Part shown: one piece after another, positions 29,994 through 50,899 of the stretch
Position numbering within the stretch: the first letter of the stretch is position 1
How the letters are laid out: every line of letters begins with the position of its first letter
Origin: Patescibacteria group bacterium
Lineage (GTDB): Bacteria; Patescibacteriota; UBA1384; XYA2-FULL-43-10; 1-14-0-10-43-13
Length of the DNA stretch: 64,000 nt
Reading direction: 5' to 3'
Assembly (NCBI GenBank): GCA_041671645.1
Contig: JBAZBD010000001.1
Span: 799,234 to 863,233 of the forward strand
Notes under the pieces: model-generated
Told to the model about the DNA's origin: nothing
The model's input: the letters and a program-made list of their open reading frames with translations, nothing else
Databases searched by the model: none
Translations under genes and position numbers: made by a program

Positions 29994-31500
29994 TTTGTCC
30001 CTCCAAAATATTTGACCTCTTTGTTGATTTCGTAGTCACTCTGAAAACTTCAAGATATTTACCAAACATCAGCCGAGTCTGTGATTCCATAGCTGGGATG
30101 GAAGAAAAGAAAATGTTGGAAATCGGCATTACAAATGGGGTCAGGCACCAGTCGAGTAGAATTCGACCAAATGGTTTCCTGCCTTGTCTCTTCGGCATCA
30201 GAAGGGTAGAAATCACAAGTGTGACAATCATACCGAGCCATGCGATAGTCAGCATTTTGATATACACTCCGCGAAAGCTATATGCCAAAATGTCTCCCTG
30301 AAAGGCAGAGCCGAAAAAAACCGGAATCCAGGCTGAAGTGATCAGGACCAACGATGTCGTCGACCAGGAGATATGTGATTCCCATAATATCAAAGCGTTC
30401 GCCCACCTGTCAAAAAACGGTATTTTGTGGTTTCCTATCGTATTTTCCATCACAAAAGGGATGTCTGACACACCCCAAGCCCAACGTTTTTTCTGCAAAT
30501 ACTGCTCACGCATAGTATTCCTGAAAGTGTCAGCCAAGACTGCGTCCTGATAGATTGGAGTATACATCGGTACCACTTCGTGACAGCCGTCAAACCGATA
30601 ATAAGTTCGCCAAAACTGATGGCCGTCTTCCACAATCGTCTTGGTCGACCAGAAATCTGTTTGGACTAGTGCGGCTAGACTCTGTGCATGGGCAGAGAAA
30701 TTACGAAGCCGAGAAGGTCTTGTCGTAACAATTAATTGCCAAAAAGACGAACCCATCGCCATCAACCGATTCATCATCGGCACGTCCCAAATATTGTTGA
30801 AAAACATAGGCAACGGCTGAAAACTTTTGTGGATGGGATCGGGATCAGTGACATATTTATAAGTCAGATCGAGGAGATAATTTTTGTCCATGATATGGTC
30901 CGAATCCATCGTTGTCACGACCACATTTTCGTAAGGAATTTTCTCTTTGTCGATTTGTTCGAGTACCTTTCTGGCCGCGTAGGTGATGTTCCCACCTTTA
31001 CCGATCACTTCACCGGGAATATCCTTGGGATGCATTACGGTCATGAAAAGATGAAACTTCTTGCCGTGCTTTTCGGTTAATATTTTGGAATACTCCCCTG
31101 CCCGTTCTTTGTCGCGCTCCTCCGTCCCCAAGACATAAATAACATGATCCTGCGGGTAATTCGAAGTGAGAACGGAACGAATAGATGATTCTAGAATTTC
31201 AATATCTTCCTTGTATGTCGGAACAATCACAAGATGATATATCTCCTTCCATTTGCCGTCCGTCTGGTCTAATTTTGCTTGCCAATCAGTTTTCATGTCA
31301 CGTCGATAATTTCGATAACCCAGGATTAACCGATAAGACATCACAAATGTTCTTATCAACCAGTAAGTTAGATAAAAAATCATGTAAATAGCAAATACTT
31401 TTGGCGAGACTAGGACAACGACGAAAGGCAAAAGCAATATTGACCAAGAAATCAAACCGGGGAGTACTTCAAACAATCTTTTGTATTTCCAGGTGTTCAT
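29965..31500 (-). CDS. Membrane-embedded processive GT2 glycosyltransferase (cellulose/chitin/hyaluronan-synthase-like; D,D,D,QxxRW)
   Basis: TMDSDH (DxD), VEDGHQFW (ED), QKKRWAWG (QxxRW). TM helices at both termini. Confidence 0.6.
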   Translation of the reverse strand: MNTWKYKRLFEVLPGLISWSILLLPFVVVLVSPKVFAIYMIFYLTYWLIRTFVMSYRLILGYRNYRRDMKTDWQAKLDQTDGKWKEIYHLVIVPTYKEDIEILESSIRSVLTSNYPQDHVIYVLGTEERDKERAGEYSKILTEKHGKKFHLFMTVMHPKDIPGEVIGKGGNITYAARKVLEQIDKEKIPYENVVVTTMDSDHIMDKNYLLDLTYKYVTDPDPIHKSFQPLPMFFNNIWDVPMMNRLMAMGSSFWQLIVTTRPSRLRNFSAHAQSLAALVQTDFWSTKTIVEDGHQFWRTYYRFDGCHEVVPMYTPIYQDAVLADTFRNTMREQYLQKKRWAWGVSDIPFVMENTIGNHKIPFFDRWANALILWESHISWSTTSLVLITSAWIPVFFGSAFQGDILAYSFRGVYIKMLTIAWLGMIVTLVISTLLMPKRQGRKPFGRILLDWCLTPFVMPISNIFFSSIPAMESQTRLMFGKYLEVFRVTTKSTKRSNILEGQNEIAKEDLQ

Positions 31501-31832
31501 TGGTGAGATAGATAATAAATTTCCAAAATCATTACAAGTGCTACTGCCAAGATATTGCCGATGAAGAGGAGATAGCCAATTTCGCGTTCTCTTTTGAAGG
31601 AAGAAAAGGCCAAAACAGTGTTGAGAATCAGAATGATGAAAAGCAGTTTGATTGGGTAAACACCGATTCTGATATAGACAAAAATGTCTGGAGAGCTAAG
31701 CAAGAAATGCCAGATAAGATAATCTACAAACGACCAGATTAGGGAAATAGAAAACAAATACCGATTCACGATATCGTCAACCAGAAATTCCTTCAGGAAC
31801 GGACCAAGGGTGGTTATATATTTTTTCATATT
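31497..31832 (-). CDS. Small 4-TM membrane protein, GtrA-like (possible polyprenyl-P-sugar flippase/accessory)
   Basis: About 111 aa from MKKYITTLGPF. Hydrophobic 4-helix pattern, and positioned first in the glycosylation operon. Family assignment is tentative. Confidence 0.35.
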   Translation of the reverse strand, partial: NMKKYITTLGPFLKEFLVDDIVNRYLFSISLIWSFVDYLIWHFLLSSPDIFVYIRIGVYPIKLLFIILILNTVLAFSSFKREREIGYLLFIGNILAVALVMILEIYYLSHQ

Positions 31833-31842
31833 TTTTGTATTT

Positions 31843-31918
31843 TGGAGCCGCATTCGAGATTCGAACTCGAGACCTCCACTTTACGAAAGTGTTGCTCTAC
31901 CAGCTGAGCTAAAGCGGC
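31843..31918 (-). tRNA. tRNA-Thr (anticodon CGT)
   Basis: Reverse complement GCCGCTTTAGCTCAGCTGGTAGAGCAACACTTTCGTAAAGTGGAGGTCTCGAGTTCGAATCTCGAATGCGGCTCCA. Anticodon loop TTCGTAA. One U·U mismatch in the acceptor stem. CCA encoded. Confidence 0.75.
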
Positions 31919-31919
31919 A

Positions 31920-31993
31920 TGGAGCGGGTAGTGGGAATCGAACCCGCGACTCATCCTTGGGAAGGATACATTTTACCACTAAACTATACCCGC
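31920..31993 (-). tRNA. tRNA-Gly (anticodon CCC)
   Basis: Reverse complement GCGGGTATAGTTTAGTGGTAAAATGTATCCTTCCCAAGGATGAGTCGCGGGTTCGATTCCCACTACCCGCTCCA. Anticodon loop TTCCCAA. Only 1 nt separates it from tRNA-Thr. Confidence 0.8.
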
Positions 31994-32145
31994 ATTAATA
32001 ACGACGATATTATCTACTACTAGAAAATTTATCACTTTGGGGTTGAAAAAACAATCGCTTGCCAATATTTTGTGTAAATAGAAATTCCAAGCTTGAAGAT
32101 CACTCAGAAAAATTGTATAGTTATTGCAAATCAAGAAAGGATTTC

Positions 32146-33153
32146 ATGGAACAGAAAAAAGTTATATTGACAGGAGACAGACCGACAGGCAAACTTCACC
32201 TCGGTCATTTTGTCGGTTCACTCCAAAATCGAGTCAAATTGCAACATGAGTATGAACAATTCATACTGATAGCCGACCTCCAGGCCCTGACAGACAACTC
32301 TGAAAATCCGGAAAAAATTAGGTCAAATGTCCTCGAAGTAGCCCTAGACTACCTAGCGGTTGGAATAGACCCGGAGATTTCCACAATATGTATTCAGTCC
32401 GAACTGCCCGCACTTTCTGATTTGACAATGTACTACTTAAATCTCGTCTCGCTTGCCCGACTTCAACGCAATCCTACAGTTAAAGATGAAATGAATCAAA
32501 AAGGCTTTGGAGCTGAAGTCCCTGCCGGATTTTTGACATATCCGATCAGCCAAGCCGCCGATATATCTGCATTTAAGGCAACTTTGGTACCAGTCGGCGC
32601 TGACCAGCTCCCGATGATTGAGCAAACCAACGAGATCGTTCGCAAATTTAATCGTGTTTACAATTCCAACGCATTAGTTGAATGTGAAGCACTAGTATCC
32701 GAAACTGGTCGACTTCCTGGTATCGACGGTAGCAACAAGATGTCCAAGTCCCTTGGCAACTGCATATATCTCTCAGATTCAGCTGAGGAGATCAAACAAA
32801 AAGTCATGAATATGTACACCGACCCGGATCACATCCATGTCGAAGATCCAGGAAAAGTTGAGGGGAATACTGTATTCGCCTATCTCGACATTTTTGATGA
32901 AAACAAAGACGAGATCGCGAAATTAAAAGAAGAGTACAAAAAGGGCGGCCTTGGCGACGTAACACTTAAGAATCGTTTGAATGATATTTTGCAGGAATTG
33001 CTCAATCCAATCAGAGCAAAGCGCGAAGAATTGGCCAAAGACCCAGATGCAATTATGAAAATTTTGGAAAAAGGCTCAGAGAAAGCTCGGGCAATTACTG
33101 GCAAAACGTTAGAGGAAATTAAATCTGCGATGAAGCTGGATTATTTCGCATAA
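32146..33153 (+). CDS. trpS: Tryptophan--tRNA ligase
   Basis: HIGH-type motif TGKLHLGH and KMSKS motif present. Start chosen at MEQKKVIL, which has an AAAGGA RBS; the ORF track starts 29 codons upstream. Confidence 0.9.
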
Positions 33154-33158
33154 GATTC

Positions 33159-33184
33159 AAACGCCTCATATGTCTGAGGTGTTT
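33159..33184. terminator. Hairpin AAACGCCTCA-TATGTC-TGAGGTGTTT, trpS terminator, member of the CCTCA…TGAGG palindrome family
   Basis: 10-bp stem including one G·U pair, 6 nt after the trpS stop. Confidence 0.5.
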
Positions 33185-33240
33185 CCGATATCCACTTCAT
33201 TGATTTTTGAGTCCAAATTTGTTATAATCCATTCTATTGC

Positions 33241-33252
33241 GGGGGCGTAGTT
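33241..33252 (+). repeat. 12-nt duplicate of the tRNA-Asp 5' end (GGGGGCGTAGTT), followed by two short hairpins, 320 bp upstream of the tRNA
   Basis: Exact 12-mer identity with 33564..33575. The downstream sequence AGCCAAAGGCT / CAGCCTCTGGCTG forms hairpins. Confidence 0.5.
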
Positions 33253-33294
33253 TCAGCCAAAGGCTGATCAGCCTCTGGCTGACAGTTGGAAAAT

Positions 33295-33573
33295 ATGCAT
33301 TTTGTTTATTTCTTAAAAAGTATTACCAACGGAAAGTATTACGTCGGTCAGACAGATCGCGAACCTTCTGTACGTTTACAAGAGCATAATTCTGGCCATA
33401 ATTCATGGACAAAAAAGAATGGCCCCTTCGAACTGATTTACCACGAAAGTTATGCATGCAAAGAAGATGCTAGGAGGAGAGAAAACTTTTATAAATCTGG
33501 TATTGGCAAAAGGGTTATGAAAGCGATAATCGAGATATTTGTTAATAAGGAAAAACCAACTACGGGGGCGTAG
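33295..33573 (+). CDS. Small GIY-YIG domain protein (UPF0213/YhbQ-like nuclease family)
   Basis: Motif F-VYFLKS…NGKYYVGQT…R…EHN matches the GIY-YIG signature. About 93 aa. Its last 10 nt overlap the 5' end of tRNA-Asp. Confidence 0.6.
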   Translation: MHFVYFLKSITNGKYYVGQTDREPSVRLQEHNSGHNSWTKKNGPFELIYHESYACKEDARRRENFYKSGIGKRVMKAIIEIFVNKEKPTTGA

Positions 33574-33640
33574 TTCAGTTGGTTAGAACGCCACACTGTC
33601 ACTGTGGAGGTCGCCGGTTCGAGCCCGGTCGCTCCCGCCA
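33564..33640 (+). tRNA. tRNA-Asp (anticodon GTC)
   Basis: GGGGGCGTAGTTCAGTTGGTTAGAACGCCACACTGTCACTGTGGAGGTCGCCGGTTCGAGCCCGGTCGCTCCCGCCA. Anticodon loop CTGTCAC. CCA encoded. Confidence 0.85.
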
Positions 33641-33679
33641 TATGTTGGTTTTTCCTTAAGAATAATGTCTCTCTAGCAG

Positions 33680-33723
33680 GTCTGGGGCAGAGGCCCGCCC
33701 ATCCTCGACTGGGCTCCCGCCAT
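33680..33723 (+). repeat. Degenerate copy of the tRNA-Asp 3' half ending in GCTCCCGCCATA, about 70 bp downstream of the intact tRNA
   Basis: GAGGCCCGCCCATCCTCGACTGGGCTCCCGCCATA compared with the tRNA 3' half GAGGTCGCCGGTTCGAGCCCGGTCGCTCCCGCCATA. The terminal 12 nt are identical. Confidence 0.5.
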
Positions 33724-33825
33724 AAAAAAGGATAGCTCTTCGAGCTATTTTTTTGTTGCAGAGCCGTCAAGACTCGCACGAGATTAGCGTATTTGATATA
33801 ATCAAAAAAATAAATTGGAGTTAGA

Positions 33826-34815
33826 ATGTCTGAGCATAATCTTGGCGCGAGTAAAAGCGATACAAAATTTTCAGCATCGGATGAACAAGTTAATCCAATA
33901 CAACCTGGCGGTCCTTTGCCAGACCATATGCTATGGGAAACCAGTGTAGATCAGAATGATCCATCAATAGAATTGGGTATTACAACACCTGATGGCGATT
34001 ATTTTCCATTCGATCATGGCGAATCGCTAATTATGATCATGATGGCAGATGGCCAGAGACAACCATTTGTTAGACTGAAAAGTGGCCAGGAAGTCAGGTT
34101 TGAATCTTGGAGATTATCAAGAAGACAAGAATTTGCTGAAGTATTAGACAATGTCGACGAAGATTATAAGGCAGCATATCTCGCGGCACTGGAAGACTTC
34201 CCCCATCTTGACCAGATGCAAGTCGAATTGGCAACTTCCCAGCAATATCCAAATCTGAAGTATACTGGCGGCTTTTGGCGAAAACCTCAAAGCGACGCAG
34301 ATGCTCCAAAAATTGTTGTTATTATGGGGCAAAATGGGCTATATGAACAGCTACTAATCGATCGAGAGCTCTCGGCCAGAAAAAGTGCTGAGATAATCGG
34401 TATCGATTTCGAGGTGATGAAAGAACACCCAAATATTTTAAAACTTTTTATTTTCCTCCATGAAATCGGCCATGTTGAGGATTATATAACAAACTTTCGC
34501 AAGAAAAGTGAATTAGACGGTTCTGATCCAGTGCAGGCAAAACGAGAAAAACGCAATCGAGAAATGGTCACTTTGCCTATTCCTGGAGTAAGTCCAGATT
34601 TGGCGAGACGAATGTACGACAGCGGAGAGCTCCAAACATACTACGCAAAATATCAACAAAATTACCAAAGGATTAGAGGGTTAATGTCGGTTGAAGAATT
34701 GCTAGATGCCAACGAGATTGCTTACCATGAGCTCCCGTCAGAGAGATATGCTGATCAACGGGCAGGAGAGATATTAAGAAAACATTGGAACGTATTAATC
34801 AATCACACCAAATAG
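33826..34815 (+). CDS. Hypothetical protein (329 aa) with an HExxH motif (FLHEIGHVEDY), possible zinc-metallopeptidase-like
   Basis: ORF with an AT-rich promoter-like upstream region. Motif only, no family assignment. No TM segments. Confidence 0.45.
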   Translation: MSEHNLGASKSDTKFSASDEQVNPIQPGGPLPDHMLWETSVDQNDPSIELGITTPDGDYFPFDHGESLIMIMMADGQRQPFVRLKSGQEVRFESWRLSRRQEFAEVLDNVDEDYKAAYLAALEDFPHLDQMQVELATSQQYPNLKYTGGFWRKPQSDADAPKIVVIMGQNGLYEQLLIDRELSARKSAEIIGIDFEVMKEHPNILKLFIFLHEIGHVEDYITNFRKKSELDGSDPVQAKREKRNREMVTLPIPGVSPDLARRMYDSGELQTYYAKYQQNYQRIRGLMSVEELLDANEIAYHELPSERYADQRAGEILRKHWNVLINHTK

Positions 34816-34994
34816 TGATGTATTAATTCGAGATAAAAATGTATTCAGACCGATAGTTCTAACTTCCGCCACTATGCCCCGCCGTTAAGAATCACCAATC
34901 TTTGTAAAAATTGGTGATTCTTTATTTGCTAATACTCTTGCATTTAGGTCAAGATCGTTGTACTGTGGAGCTGATAATTAATAGAAAGGGTGTT

Positions 34995-35750
34995 ATGTCC
35001 TATTGGCTCATTCCGATCGCGATCTTGGTCTTTTCTGCCCTCAGAGTCGTTCAGCAATATGAAAAAGGTGTCGTTTTCCGCCTTGGTAAGGTCATCGGCG
35101 AGCGAGGCCCAGGTTGGCGAATTATGATTCCGATCATAGACATTATGCGCAAAGTTTCCTTGCAGATAATCACCATGCCGATTCCTTCACAGAAAATTAT
35201 CACGAAAGACAATGTTTCGATCGATGTAGCCGCTGTCGCCTACTTTCAGATCGTTGACGCGACCAAATCCTTGGTTGCAATTCAGAATGTTGTCTCAGCC
35301 GTGAATCAAATTTCCCAGACCACGATTAGAAATTTTGTTGGACAATTCACACTTGATGAAGTATTGTCCGAGACCGATAAGATAAATAAGAAGGTCAAGA
35401 ATATCATCGACACTCACACTGAGGCCTGGGGCGTTTCAGTCAAAACTGTAGAGATCAAAGATATTCAACTCCCAGACACAATGCAACGAGCGATGGCCAA
35501 ACAGGCCGAAGCTGAGAGAGAAAAGCGGGCCAAAATCATCGCAGCTGAAGGTGAATTTCAATCAGCAGATCAGCTTGGCAAGGCCGCCGATGTCATAGCT
35601 AAGCATCCAATTGCTCTGCAACTTCGCAATCTCCAGGTCTTGTCCGAAATAGCAGTGGAGAAGAATTCGACAATTGTCTTCCCATCCCAACTATTCTCAA
35701 GCGTTGATAACTTGAAAAAATTCGTGGGCGACGAGATAAGTTCTAAATAG
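34995..35750 (+). CDS. SPFH/band-7 (stomatin/prohibitin-like) membrane protein
   Basis: N-terminal TM helix, then the SPFH core (…[13 protein letters not shown]…[20 protein letters not shown]…) and a coiled-coil [17 protein letters not shown]. Start taken at MSYWLIP, with a GAAAGGG RBS. Confidence 0.75.
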
Positions 35751-50377: not shown

Positions 50378-50899
50378 TTAATCGGCCTTTAGCCGATTGT
50401 TGGTTTGTGCGTGTGTAATCGCAACTGCCAGGGCGTCTGCCGCATCATCTGGCTTGGGGCAATCTTTCAGATCGCAGACGACCCGCACCATCTCCTGCAT
50501 CTGCTTCTTGTCCGCCCTGCCATACCCAGTCAGGGCTTGCTTGACCTGGAGAGGCGTATACTCGAAAACTGGCAGACCATATTTCAATCCGGTCACGACT
50601 GCCACGCCTCGCGCCTCTGCCACCGATATGACCGTAGTCGCGTTCTTGAAAAAGAACAGCTCCTCCACAGCCATTTCGTCTGGTCGGTTCTTTTCAATTA
50701 TATCACAAAGAGAGGTGTAAATATGAAGTAACCGCTTCATTTTGTCGGTCTTGGGCGGGGTAATAACACAGCCATATTTGAGCGGTTTGATCTTGTCGCC
50801 GCTCTTCTCGATCAGCCCCCAGCCAAGAATTCCGGTGCCAGGATCAATTCCTAGAATCCTGACGGATTTAGTTTTCAGTTTACAGTTTACAGTTTCCAT
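50378..50899 (-). CDS. ruvC: Crossover junction endodeoxyribonuclease RuvC
   Basis: ILGIDPGTGILGWG…, catalytic E (AVEELFF) and the D/H region. A terminator hairpin ATCGGCCTTTAGCCGAT overlaps the stop. Confidence 0.85.
   Translation of the reverse strand: METVNCKLKTKSVRILGIDPGTGILGWGLIEKSGDKIKPLKYGCVITPPKTDKMKRLLHIYTSLCDIIEKNRPDEMAVEELFFFKNATTVISVAEARGVAVVTGLKYGLPVFEYTPLQVKQALTGYGRADKKQMQEMVRVVCDLKDCPKPDDAADALAVAITHAQTNNRLKAD

Follow-up and report, generated by a model that had tools for sequence, protein, structure and literature searches.

Known systems and the tRNA-Asp locus

GIY-YIG open reading frames (ORFs) reportedly occur in non-intron insertion sequences in the rRNA genes of the candidate phyla radiation (CPR)/Patescibacteria, as Brown is said to have described in 2015. 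We describe here a locus at which a short GIY-YIG nuclease gene is nested in a tRNA-Asp gene. It is located in a 64-kb stretch of DNA from the metagenome-assembled genome (MAG) of an uncultured member of the Patescibacteria, on an 868-kb contig, and this whole stretch is referred to below as the window. From the 5′ side, the locus contains a piece of tRNA-Asp (the stump), a palindromic double-hairpin module, the nuclease gene and a complete tRNA-Asp. With a probability of roughly 0.65–0.7, we read it as an intact member of a widespread family of mobile nuclease/hairpin elements nested in tRNA genes, on the basis of sequence comparisons. The element would be a form of intron-less, endonuclease-driven selfish DNA.

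The rRNA genes of CPR bacteria carry non-intron insertions that contain GIY-YIG genes (Tsurumaki et al. 2024, PMC11270868). The window element shares with them the host phylum, the small GIY-YIG family, a structured-RNA gene as the site of insertion and the lack of a ribozyme. On the other hand, the ORF in the rRNA insertions is located at a helix tip between inverted repeats and the host gene is not duplicated, whereas the window element has a tRNA host, a partial duplication of the target, a regenerated live tRNA and the module on the dead copy. The inverted repeat in the window, moreover, brackets the tRNA and not the ORF. Three loci found in our survey (L042, L050 and L053, see below) are 16S insertions of the CPR rRNA type and match those already described (PMC11270868).

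T4-like phages encode free-standing GIY-YIG Seg proteins, for example SegB in a tRNA gene cluster (PMC2330249). As in the window, an intron-less GIY-YIG gene is found beside tRNA genes, and the spread proposed for Seg genes, in which the unoccupied allele is broken and then repaired by recombination, is similar to that considered here. Occupied (window and L001) and unoccupied (L004 and L005) alleles of one target, a feature of homing endonucleases, are both observed among the relatives of the window locus. However, Seg genes are intergenic, with no target duplication and no hairpin module. Seg proteins and I-TevI have 200–250 amino acids (aa) and DNA-binding modules, in comparison to the bare 92-aa catalytic domain of the window protein.

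Group I introns have been found in the genes that encode tRNA-Asn and tRNA-Asp in Patescibacteria (PMC13011429). They are located at position 35/36, are self-splicing and mostly lack endonuclease genes, and GIY-YIG proteins, duplication and hairpins are not mentioned in that paper. The phylum, the tRNA-Asp target and the selfish nature of the insertion are the same as in the window. However, the tRNA in the window is uninterrupted, and its function is kept by duplication rather than by splicing.

The structure-specific nuclease SLX1 offers a biochemical precedent that fits a protein lacking a DNA-binding domain and paired with a hairpin site, although SLX1 needs SLX4. To our knowledge, no mobile-element role has been assigned to UPF0213 (YhbQ-type) proteins, and we know of no tRNA-nested context or hairpin module for either SLX1 or UPF0213.

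In fungal mitochondria, intron-less mobile endonuclease ORFs insert into genes together with a replacement piece of the gene (Allomyces atp6), and small mobile double-hairpin elements are also found there. The essential gene is kept by the duplicated segment, and the displaced piece is a pseudo-fragment, as in the window element. These cases differ in that they involve organelles, protein-coding targets and in-frame fusions, and we know of no demonstrated link between the hairpins and the endonucleases. In the window element, module type and ORF clade evolve together, and it is the 5′ part of the tRNA, from +1, that is duplicated. No description of an element that combines a GIY-YIG gene, hairpins and a tRNA duplication was found in open-access papers and bioRxiv, where absence is not proof of novelty.

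Anatomy of the locus and its relatives

The resident tRNA-Asp gene is split, with the 5′ stump left on the native promoter and a complete copy located after the ORF (Table 1). A preliminary description, made from the letters of the window, had noted that the first 12 nucleotides (nt) of the tRNA recur upstream and are followed by two small hairpins. Both features are present. The repeat is the 13-mer CGGGGGCGTAGTT, at 33240–33252 and 33563–33575, 323 nt apart, with no third site in the window. The stump 12-mer has the same two matches only, with one mismatch allowed (0.16 expected). Hairpins 1 and 2 are TCAGCCAAAGGCTGA (33253–33267) and TCAGCCTCTGGCTGA (33268–33282), 15 nt each. Behind the hairpins, CAGTTGG continues the tRNA from position 13, so that the upstream fragment extends beyond the 12-mer and corresponds to tRNA-Asp positions 1–19 carrying a precise 30-nt insertion. 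The homology of the stump to the tRNA weakens toward the ATG of the ORF; in the related locus L001, 13/16 matches persist up to the start codon.

Table 1. Features of the tRNA-Asp locus, in window coordinates
Feature	Position	Strand	Basis and remarks
Sigma-70-type promoter, TTGATT, 17 nt, TGtTATAAT	33200–33228	+	10/12 match, extended −10
tRNA-Asp stump, positions 1–12, GGGGGCGTAGTT	33241–33252	+	repeat search; position as tRNA start in L004
Palindromic double-hairpin module, 30 nt	33253–33282	+	two 6-bp stems, 3-nt loops AAA then TCT
Stump continuation CAGTTGG, tRNA positions 13–19	33283–33289	+	direct reading against tRNA
GIY-YIG nuclease gene, 92 aa	33295–33573	+	Pfam PF01541
5′ arm of inverted repeat around intact tRNA, within ORF 3′ end	33539–33560	+	22 nt, 86% complementary
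tRNA-Asp(GTC), complete, functional copy	33564–33640	+	ARAGORN; Rfam tRNA 67.9 bits; starts right after ORF body
3′ arm of inverted repeat around intact tRNA	33644–33665	+	repeat search, RNA fold
Older tRNA-Asp pseudo-copy remnant	33680–33724	+	tRNA-like clearly only in last ~14 nt (acceptor 3′ strand and CCA)
Terminator-like hairpin, then T run	33726–33754	+	ends stump-ORF-tRNA unit; hairpin kept in L002, L004 and L069
HEIGH ORF, 329 aa	33826–34815		13 homologues

The promoter, a strong one now ahead of the stump and the nuclease gene, is the native promoter of tRNA-Asp: TTGTTATAAT, about 12 nt and ATTGC immediately precede the intact tRNA-Asp in L004. The tRNA-Asp of the window is continuous, with no interruption detected by ARAGORN. 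In the predicted RNA fold, it is mounted on a stem of about 20 bp, formed by the 3′ end of the ORF and the trailer (z = −4.6), and the 14-nt core of this inverted repeat is identical in L001. An Rfam scan of 31500–35500 at E ≤ 1 found no group I intron, giving only tRNAs and two weak chance matches. The stump, the hairpins and the spacer between the tRNA and the downstream gene for a protein with a HEIGH motif match nothing in Rfam except tRNAs. No second copy of the element was found in the window.

The ORF encodes 92 aa from an ATG that is conserved in the family, or 95 aa if translation starts from the TTG at 33286. The preliminary description had given about 93 aa and a 10-nt overlap with the tRNA; the last 10 nt of the ORF do overlap the tRNA, and its stop codon TAG corresponds to U8-A9-G10. 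The match to PF01541 covers residues 1–68 (57.8 bits with a cutoff of 22.6, E = 1.4e-15). The protein consists of an SLX1/UPF0213-like catalytic domain only, with no DNA-binding extension. Its nearest solved structures are UPF0213 BH0048/EF2693 (1zg2, 1ywl; E about 1e-10 to 1e-11) and SLX1 (E = 5e-5), and the group I intron endonuclease model TIGR01453 scores 21.5 bits, below its cutoff of 56.05. Among 40 homologues, Tyr5 and Tyr16 are invariant and Arg27, His31 and Glu63 are at least 90% conserved. All five residues, which we take to form the catalytic core from knowledge of the family, are present in the window protein. No exact match to this protein is on record. Comparison with the ORF of L001 gives a dN/dS of 0.12 (pS 0.63), and the ORF is intact and under purifying selection. 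The leader (33241–33297) differs from that of L001 at 11 of 57 positions, four of which make up two compensatory pairs.

Orthologous loci were reached through homologues of the neighboring HEIGH protein. The upstream parts of the window, L001, L002 and L004 were compared by eye, as a four-locus MAFFT alignment misaligned them. Occupancy of the site varies. L004 and L005 (HEIGH protein 81% identical) are empty: an intact tRNA-Asp immediately follows the same promoter and leader (TTGTTATAAT ... ATTGC), and stump, hairpins and ORF are all absent. L002 and L003 (HEIGH protein 85% identical) contain the stump GGGGGCGTAGCTCAGTT, the double hairpin, GGTTAGAGCGC, a 27-nt spacer and an intact tRNA, and have no ORF. 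L001 (ORF 75% identical) has the full layout of the window. Its hairpin 1 is altered on both strands (TCGTCC/GGACGA), corresponding to compensatory changes, and 39 nt past the live tRNA there is a long 3′ pseudo-copy that begins at tRNA position 20. Since the tRNA of L004 starts, relative to the same promoter, where the stump starts in the window, the stump marks the native position of the tRNA. The preliminary description had taken an invariant arrangement in all relatives as an argument against a recent mobile event, and by that criterion the variation observed favors a mobile event.

The hairpins are maintained by covariation. In 16 modules of the window type, 98.4% of the cells are paired, and compensatory change is observed in 8 of the 12 pairs. 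There are 28 double-change cells, as compared to 5.1 ± 2.2 in shuffles (0 of 500 shuffles as high), and only 2 G-U cells across the 16 modules. Purines form the loop of hairpin 1 and pyrimidines that of hairpin 2; the module thus amounts to one unit and, after it, the same unit inverted. The two-fold symmetry and the Watson-Crick pairing on both strands favor the interpretation of the module as a DNA site rather than an RNA structure. In a neighbor-joining tree of the ORFs, the loci cluster by module type, and the identities of the tRNAs (Asp, Pro, Val, Ala, His, Ile, Phe and Asn) are scattered inside the window clade. The module and the ORF therefore co-evolve, and the targets have been switched.

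An exhaustive search with the 92-aa query found 3405 cluster representatives at E ≤ 1e-3, and was used in place of a word-indexed search that gave 2 proteins. Scans of species genomes and metagenomes, with a 3-sequence alignment, gave 55 loci, which were fetched with 1.5-kb flanks; together with the window and L001, they represent 48 distinct loci. Of these, 43 extend for 100 nt or more past the stop codon, and 25 of the 43 have a tRNA in the same orientation whose start is −40 to +60 nt from that codon, with a chance expectation of about 0.4% per locus (based on the tRNA density of the window). These adjacent tRNAs span 17 anticodon classes. In almost all of the tRNA-adjacent loci, a stump of the same tRNA with a palindromic module is located upstream of the ORF, and the tRNA sequence resumes after the module up to the ATG. 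In 19 of 20 loci, tRNA +1 is the exact start of the repeat shared by the stump and the live copy, and 0–3 nt match further upstream. The modules are located after T8, at 12/13, in the D-loop (16–18), at about 23/24, in the anticodon loop and in the T-loop (G57/A58). The TAG at tRNA positions 8–10 serves as the stop codon for several ORFs.

The window contains all parts of this layout over 33241–33640: the +1 stump, the module, an ORF for some 90 aa and, a few nt at most from its stop, a complete co-oriented tRNA. The same layout is found in L001, L009–L013, L015–L017, L022, L026, L028, L031, L032, L035, L036, L040, L047–L049, L052, L054, L057 and L060. Two parts probably make up the element, a gene for a nuclease of about 90 aa and the palindromic hairpin module cognate to it, both nested within a tRNA gene. 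Variants of this arrangement are also observed. L027 and L045 have a mirror form, with the live tRNA, the ORF and then a module-bearing pseudo-tRNA. In L039 (1–640), a stump, module and ORF are followed in tandem by a stump, module and truncated ORF, and then by tRNA-Ser. The 3′ pseudo-copy found downstream in some loci is at times contiguous with the stump (L001, L022, L048 and L060). As a side observation, the stump and the 3′ pseudo-copy of L022 (1299–1930) both carry a 62-nt repeat in their anticodon loops, suggestive of recombination between the copies.

The loci without a tRNA include three in 16S rRNA genes and six with the ORF between long inverted repeats. In the three 16S loci (L042, L050 and L053, about 1380–1800 in each), the ORF is located just before the GGAAGG...GATGACGTCAA region of the rRNA gene, and the insertions are bracketed by the inverted repeat CCCCGCCCTTTTGGC / GCCAAAAGGGCGGGG.

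Many database relatives have C-terminal tails that are translated tRNA 5′ halves, and extensions that are translated hairpins. In P0019, P0026, P0036, P0039 and P0047, for example, ‘PEADQPLAE/PPKADPPQAE’ corresponds to translated modules and ‘...AQLVSAPR / VAQSVRASGS’ to translated tRNA 5′ halves. Such artefactual strings can be used to find further elements.

The 12-mer GCTCCCGCCATA is found at 33631–33642, at the end of the live tRNA, and again at 33713–33724. It had been described as the end of a degenerate tRNA 3′ half, paired with the 5′ fragment as one set of scars. The 12-mer itself stands, and the remaining similarity is weak beyond about 14 nt in the window (local score 21), with the fragments in relatives lending it support. 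Fragments at the same position, with acceptor-like sequence and CCA before the terminator, are present in L002 (about 527–543), L004 (about 545–560) and L069 (about 45–60), and L001 has its long 3′ copy. As L004 has neither stump nor ORF, and the fragment is also in L069, it is judged from this distribution to be an older pseudo-copy common to the relatives and not the partner of the 5′ stump. The pairing of the two fragments is therefore abandoned.

Each genome keeps its own acceptor variant (GCTCCC, GATCCC or GACCCC) and CCA in the 3′ pseudo-fragment, while the remainder of the pseudo-copy is decayed and full of small hairpins. Gene conversion with the live tRNA, or some function, could account for the retained variants. 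A conserved structured RNA in the spacer between the tRNA and the HEIGH gene was also considered and rejected in favor of the old pseudo-copy, as an alignment of five relatives shows conservation only in the last ~17 nt and the terminator.

Mechanism and alternative explanations

In the mechanism we propose, the captured tRNA promoter would transcribe a single unit, with the stump/hairpin leader, the nuclease mRNA and the tRNA. The essential tRNA would depend on transcription through the element, which would therefore be hard to lose. Cleavage by RNase P at +1 would strip the stop codon from the ORF and keep the output of nuclease low. The nuclease, with no DNA-binding domain, would read structure, in the hairpin module and/or the hairpin-prone tRNA gene, and the break that it makes would seed insertion. 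Repair would then copy the tRNA segment from +1 to the break and regenerate a working tRNA. As a result, single-copy essential tRNA genes could be invaded, and the element could move between different tRNAs. Its spread from strain to strain would take place through ordinary homologous recombination, in a homing-like manner. Target duplication as the specific mechanism is tentative, and we place it somewhat below an even chance.

A more general form of this proposal is a class of structure-directed transposable elements, each made of a bare 90-aa GIY-YIG domain and its hairpin module, that read the folded state (cloverleaf or hairpin) of tRNA and rRNA genes and not their sequence, insert at loops and recopy the essential target from +1. 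We regard the existence of such a class as less likely than not, although it is a real possibility. The recopying could be templated by the mature tRNA, or start where the acceptor stem is cut at its base, and recopying from exactly +1 would explain the boundary found in 19 of the 20 loci.

Several observations weigh against the reading of the locus as a mobile element of this type. Cleavage, target and mobility are all deduced from comparative anatomy. Peptide patterns taken from close relatives served to find the loci, and the sample is biased toward relatives of the window ORF. About one-third of the loci have a downstream 3′ pseudo-copy, and a pure duplication of the 5′ side of the target predicts none. 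In L034 (about 720–1135), the stump ahead of the ORF, GGGCGATTAGCTCAGTT with its module, differs from the tRNA behind the ORF, GAGCCTGTAGCTCAG... (anticodon GAC, cut by the contig end). L004 could reflect secondary loss through recombination between stump and tRNA, and not a site that was never occupied. Viral contigs yielded no relatives. The nt identity between ORFs from different tRNA genes does not exceed 74% and the window has a single copy, so no recent jump is evident; very recent transposition was considered and rejected on the basis of the same identity limit. If the tRNA gene is the target, the regenerated tRNA would have to escape cutting. The tRNA sequence resumes after the module inside the stump, and the module and the ORF may therefore be separate insertions. 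One simple event does not account for everything.

The alternative that survives best is gene replacement by homing, in which the ORF, a complete tRNA and a short trailer are pasted in by break repair. This cassette would divide the resident tRNA, leaving a stump on its 5′ side and a remnant on its 3′ side, as with the mitochondrial endonuclease ORFs, which carry in a replacement piece and displace the resident one. Where preservation is best, one tRNA does result from the stump plus the 3′ pseudo-copy, contiguously or with a short overlap (positions 1–28 and 20–end in L001; 1–41 and 30–88, with the 62-nt repeat, in L022; and similarly in L048 and L060). The live tRNA in the window and L001 is flanked by its own inverted repeat, as a unit would be, and in L057 and L060 several positions distinguish the stump from the live copy. 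On the other hand, most loci lack a 3′ remnant, and that of the window lineage is also present in L004, which has no stump or ORF. The stump and the live tRNA have the same identity and are usually identical (72/72 nt in L012 and 67/67 in L049). ORFs of one clade are found at 10 or more tRNA identities, and a carried tRNA would need to be exchanged at every switch. The exact start of the repeat at +1 is also left unexplained. Replacement by a cassette is therefore considered unlikely.

A host-serving operon is a distinctly less probable explanation. The unit would function in RNA or DNA repair or in tRNA processing, for example, or as a toxin-antitoxin-like addiction pair, and the leader would be a regulatory or antitoxin RNA and not a scar of insertion. 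GIY-YIG domains are also found as toxin domains. The ORF and the leader are both constrained, compensatory change maintains the hairpins, and the unit is apparently co-transcribed with an essential tRNA, all of which speak for such an operon. However, the unit is patchy at the same locus among close relatives and is found with many different tRNA partners. Decayed stumps, tandem arrays and mirror forms are difficult to reconcile with a host function, as are the relatives inside 16S rRNA genes, and the near absence of G-U pairs together with the inverted-copy units suggests a DNA site.

The reading closest to the preliminary description, a decayed tyrosine-integrase island at tRNA-Asp whose leftover cargo would be the GIY-YIG and HEIGH genes, is effectively refuted: tRNA genes are classic integration sites and direct repeats of tRNA ends do flank the region, but the neighborhood ORFs (TrpS, GIY-YIG, HEIGH, SPFH and enolase) include no integrase, the 1.5 kb on either side of the ORF in the 55 related loci contain none, the upstream repeat is the tRNA 5′ end and encloses a single 92-aa ORF, the 3′ repeat encloses 72 nt with no gene and is also present in the ORF-less L004, the HEIGH gene is outside both repeats and conserved in other contexts, and the ORF is not decayed. 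The preliminary description had itself noted the lack of an integrase near the locus, and this observation is confirmed. Its view of the fragments as scars of a mobile element holds for an insertion into tRNA-Asp, and not for the integrase/att model. The GIY-YIG gene as selfish cargo is borne out, while the decay that had been assumed is not, given the intact ORF and a layout that is complete and standard for this recurrent element.

Neighboring features and significance

The protein encoded downstream of the tRNA has the length given in the preliminary description, 329 aa, and is not the orphan suggested there (Table 1). His212, Glu213, Gly215, His216 and Asp219 are invariant among its 13 homologues, which in the homologue search are confined to Patescibacteria metagenomes. 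With no match in Pfam or NCBIfam, the protein is a candidate novel zinc metallopeptidase of an uncharacterized family. Its gene was considered as part of the element, as had been proposed for the remnant, and was rejected, since distant homologues are found in unrelated contexts without tRNA-Asp. From this distribution, we regard it as a conserved gene of the clade and only a neighbor of the element.

When 32059–35750 of the window is compared with 1–3009 of L004, the block containing tRNA-Asp and the HEIGH gene is inverted relative to its TrpS and SPFH flanks. In L004, SPFH is located upstream and is divergent, and TrpS is located downstream and is convergent. Rearrangement breakpoints therefore fall at the tRNA-Asp locus.

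The hairpin-unit pattern has four matches in the window, as compared to an expectation of 0.5, and the module itself accounts for two of them. A single unit, TCGGCCTTTAGCCGA, with one mismatch to the pattern, is found in an AT-rich intergenic region at 50382–50396, and could be a solo module or a chance match.

If the reading of the locus as a tRNA-nested mobile element is correct, it would represent an overlooked family of minimal selfish elements in the tRNA genes of genome-reduced bacteria, among them Patescibacteria and members of several other phyla. Without a self-splicing intron, the elements would occupy an essential RNA gene that is present in one copy, by duplicating the target and taking over its promoter. 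Such elements would explain many short ‘GIY-YIG family’ annotations, pseudo-tRNA fragments and the odd N- and C-terminal extensions of metagenome proteins, with PEADQPLAE-type peptides as translated hairpins and AQLVSA-type tails as translated tRNA. They would also provide a functional context for the large, uncharacterized UPF0213/YhbQ-type branch of the GIY-YIG superfamily. A 90-aa nuclease and a co-evolving 30-nt site would be a compact system for structure-specific recognition of DNA, and the precise boundary at +1 would be a clue to its mechanism.

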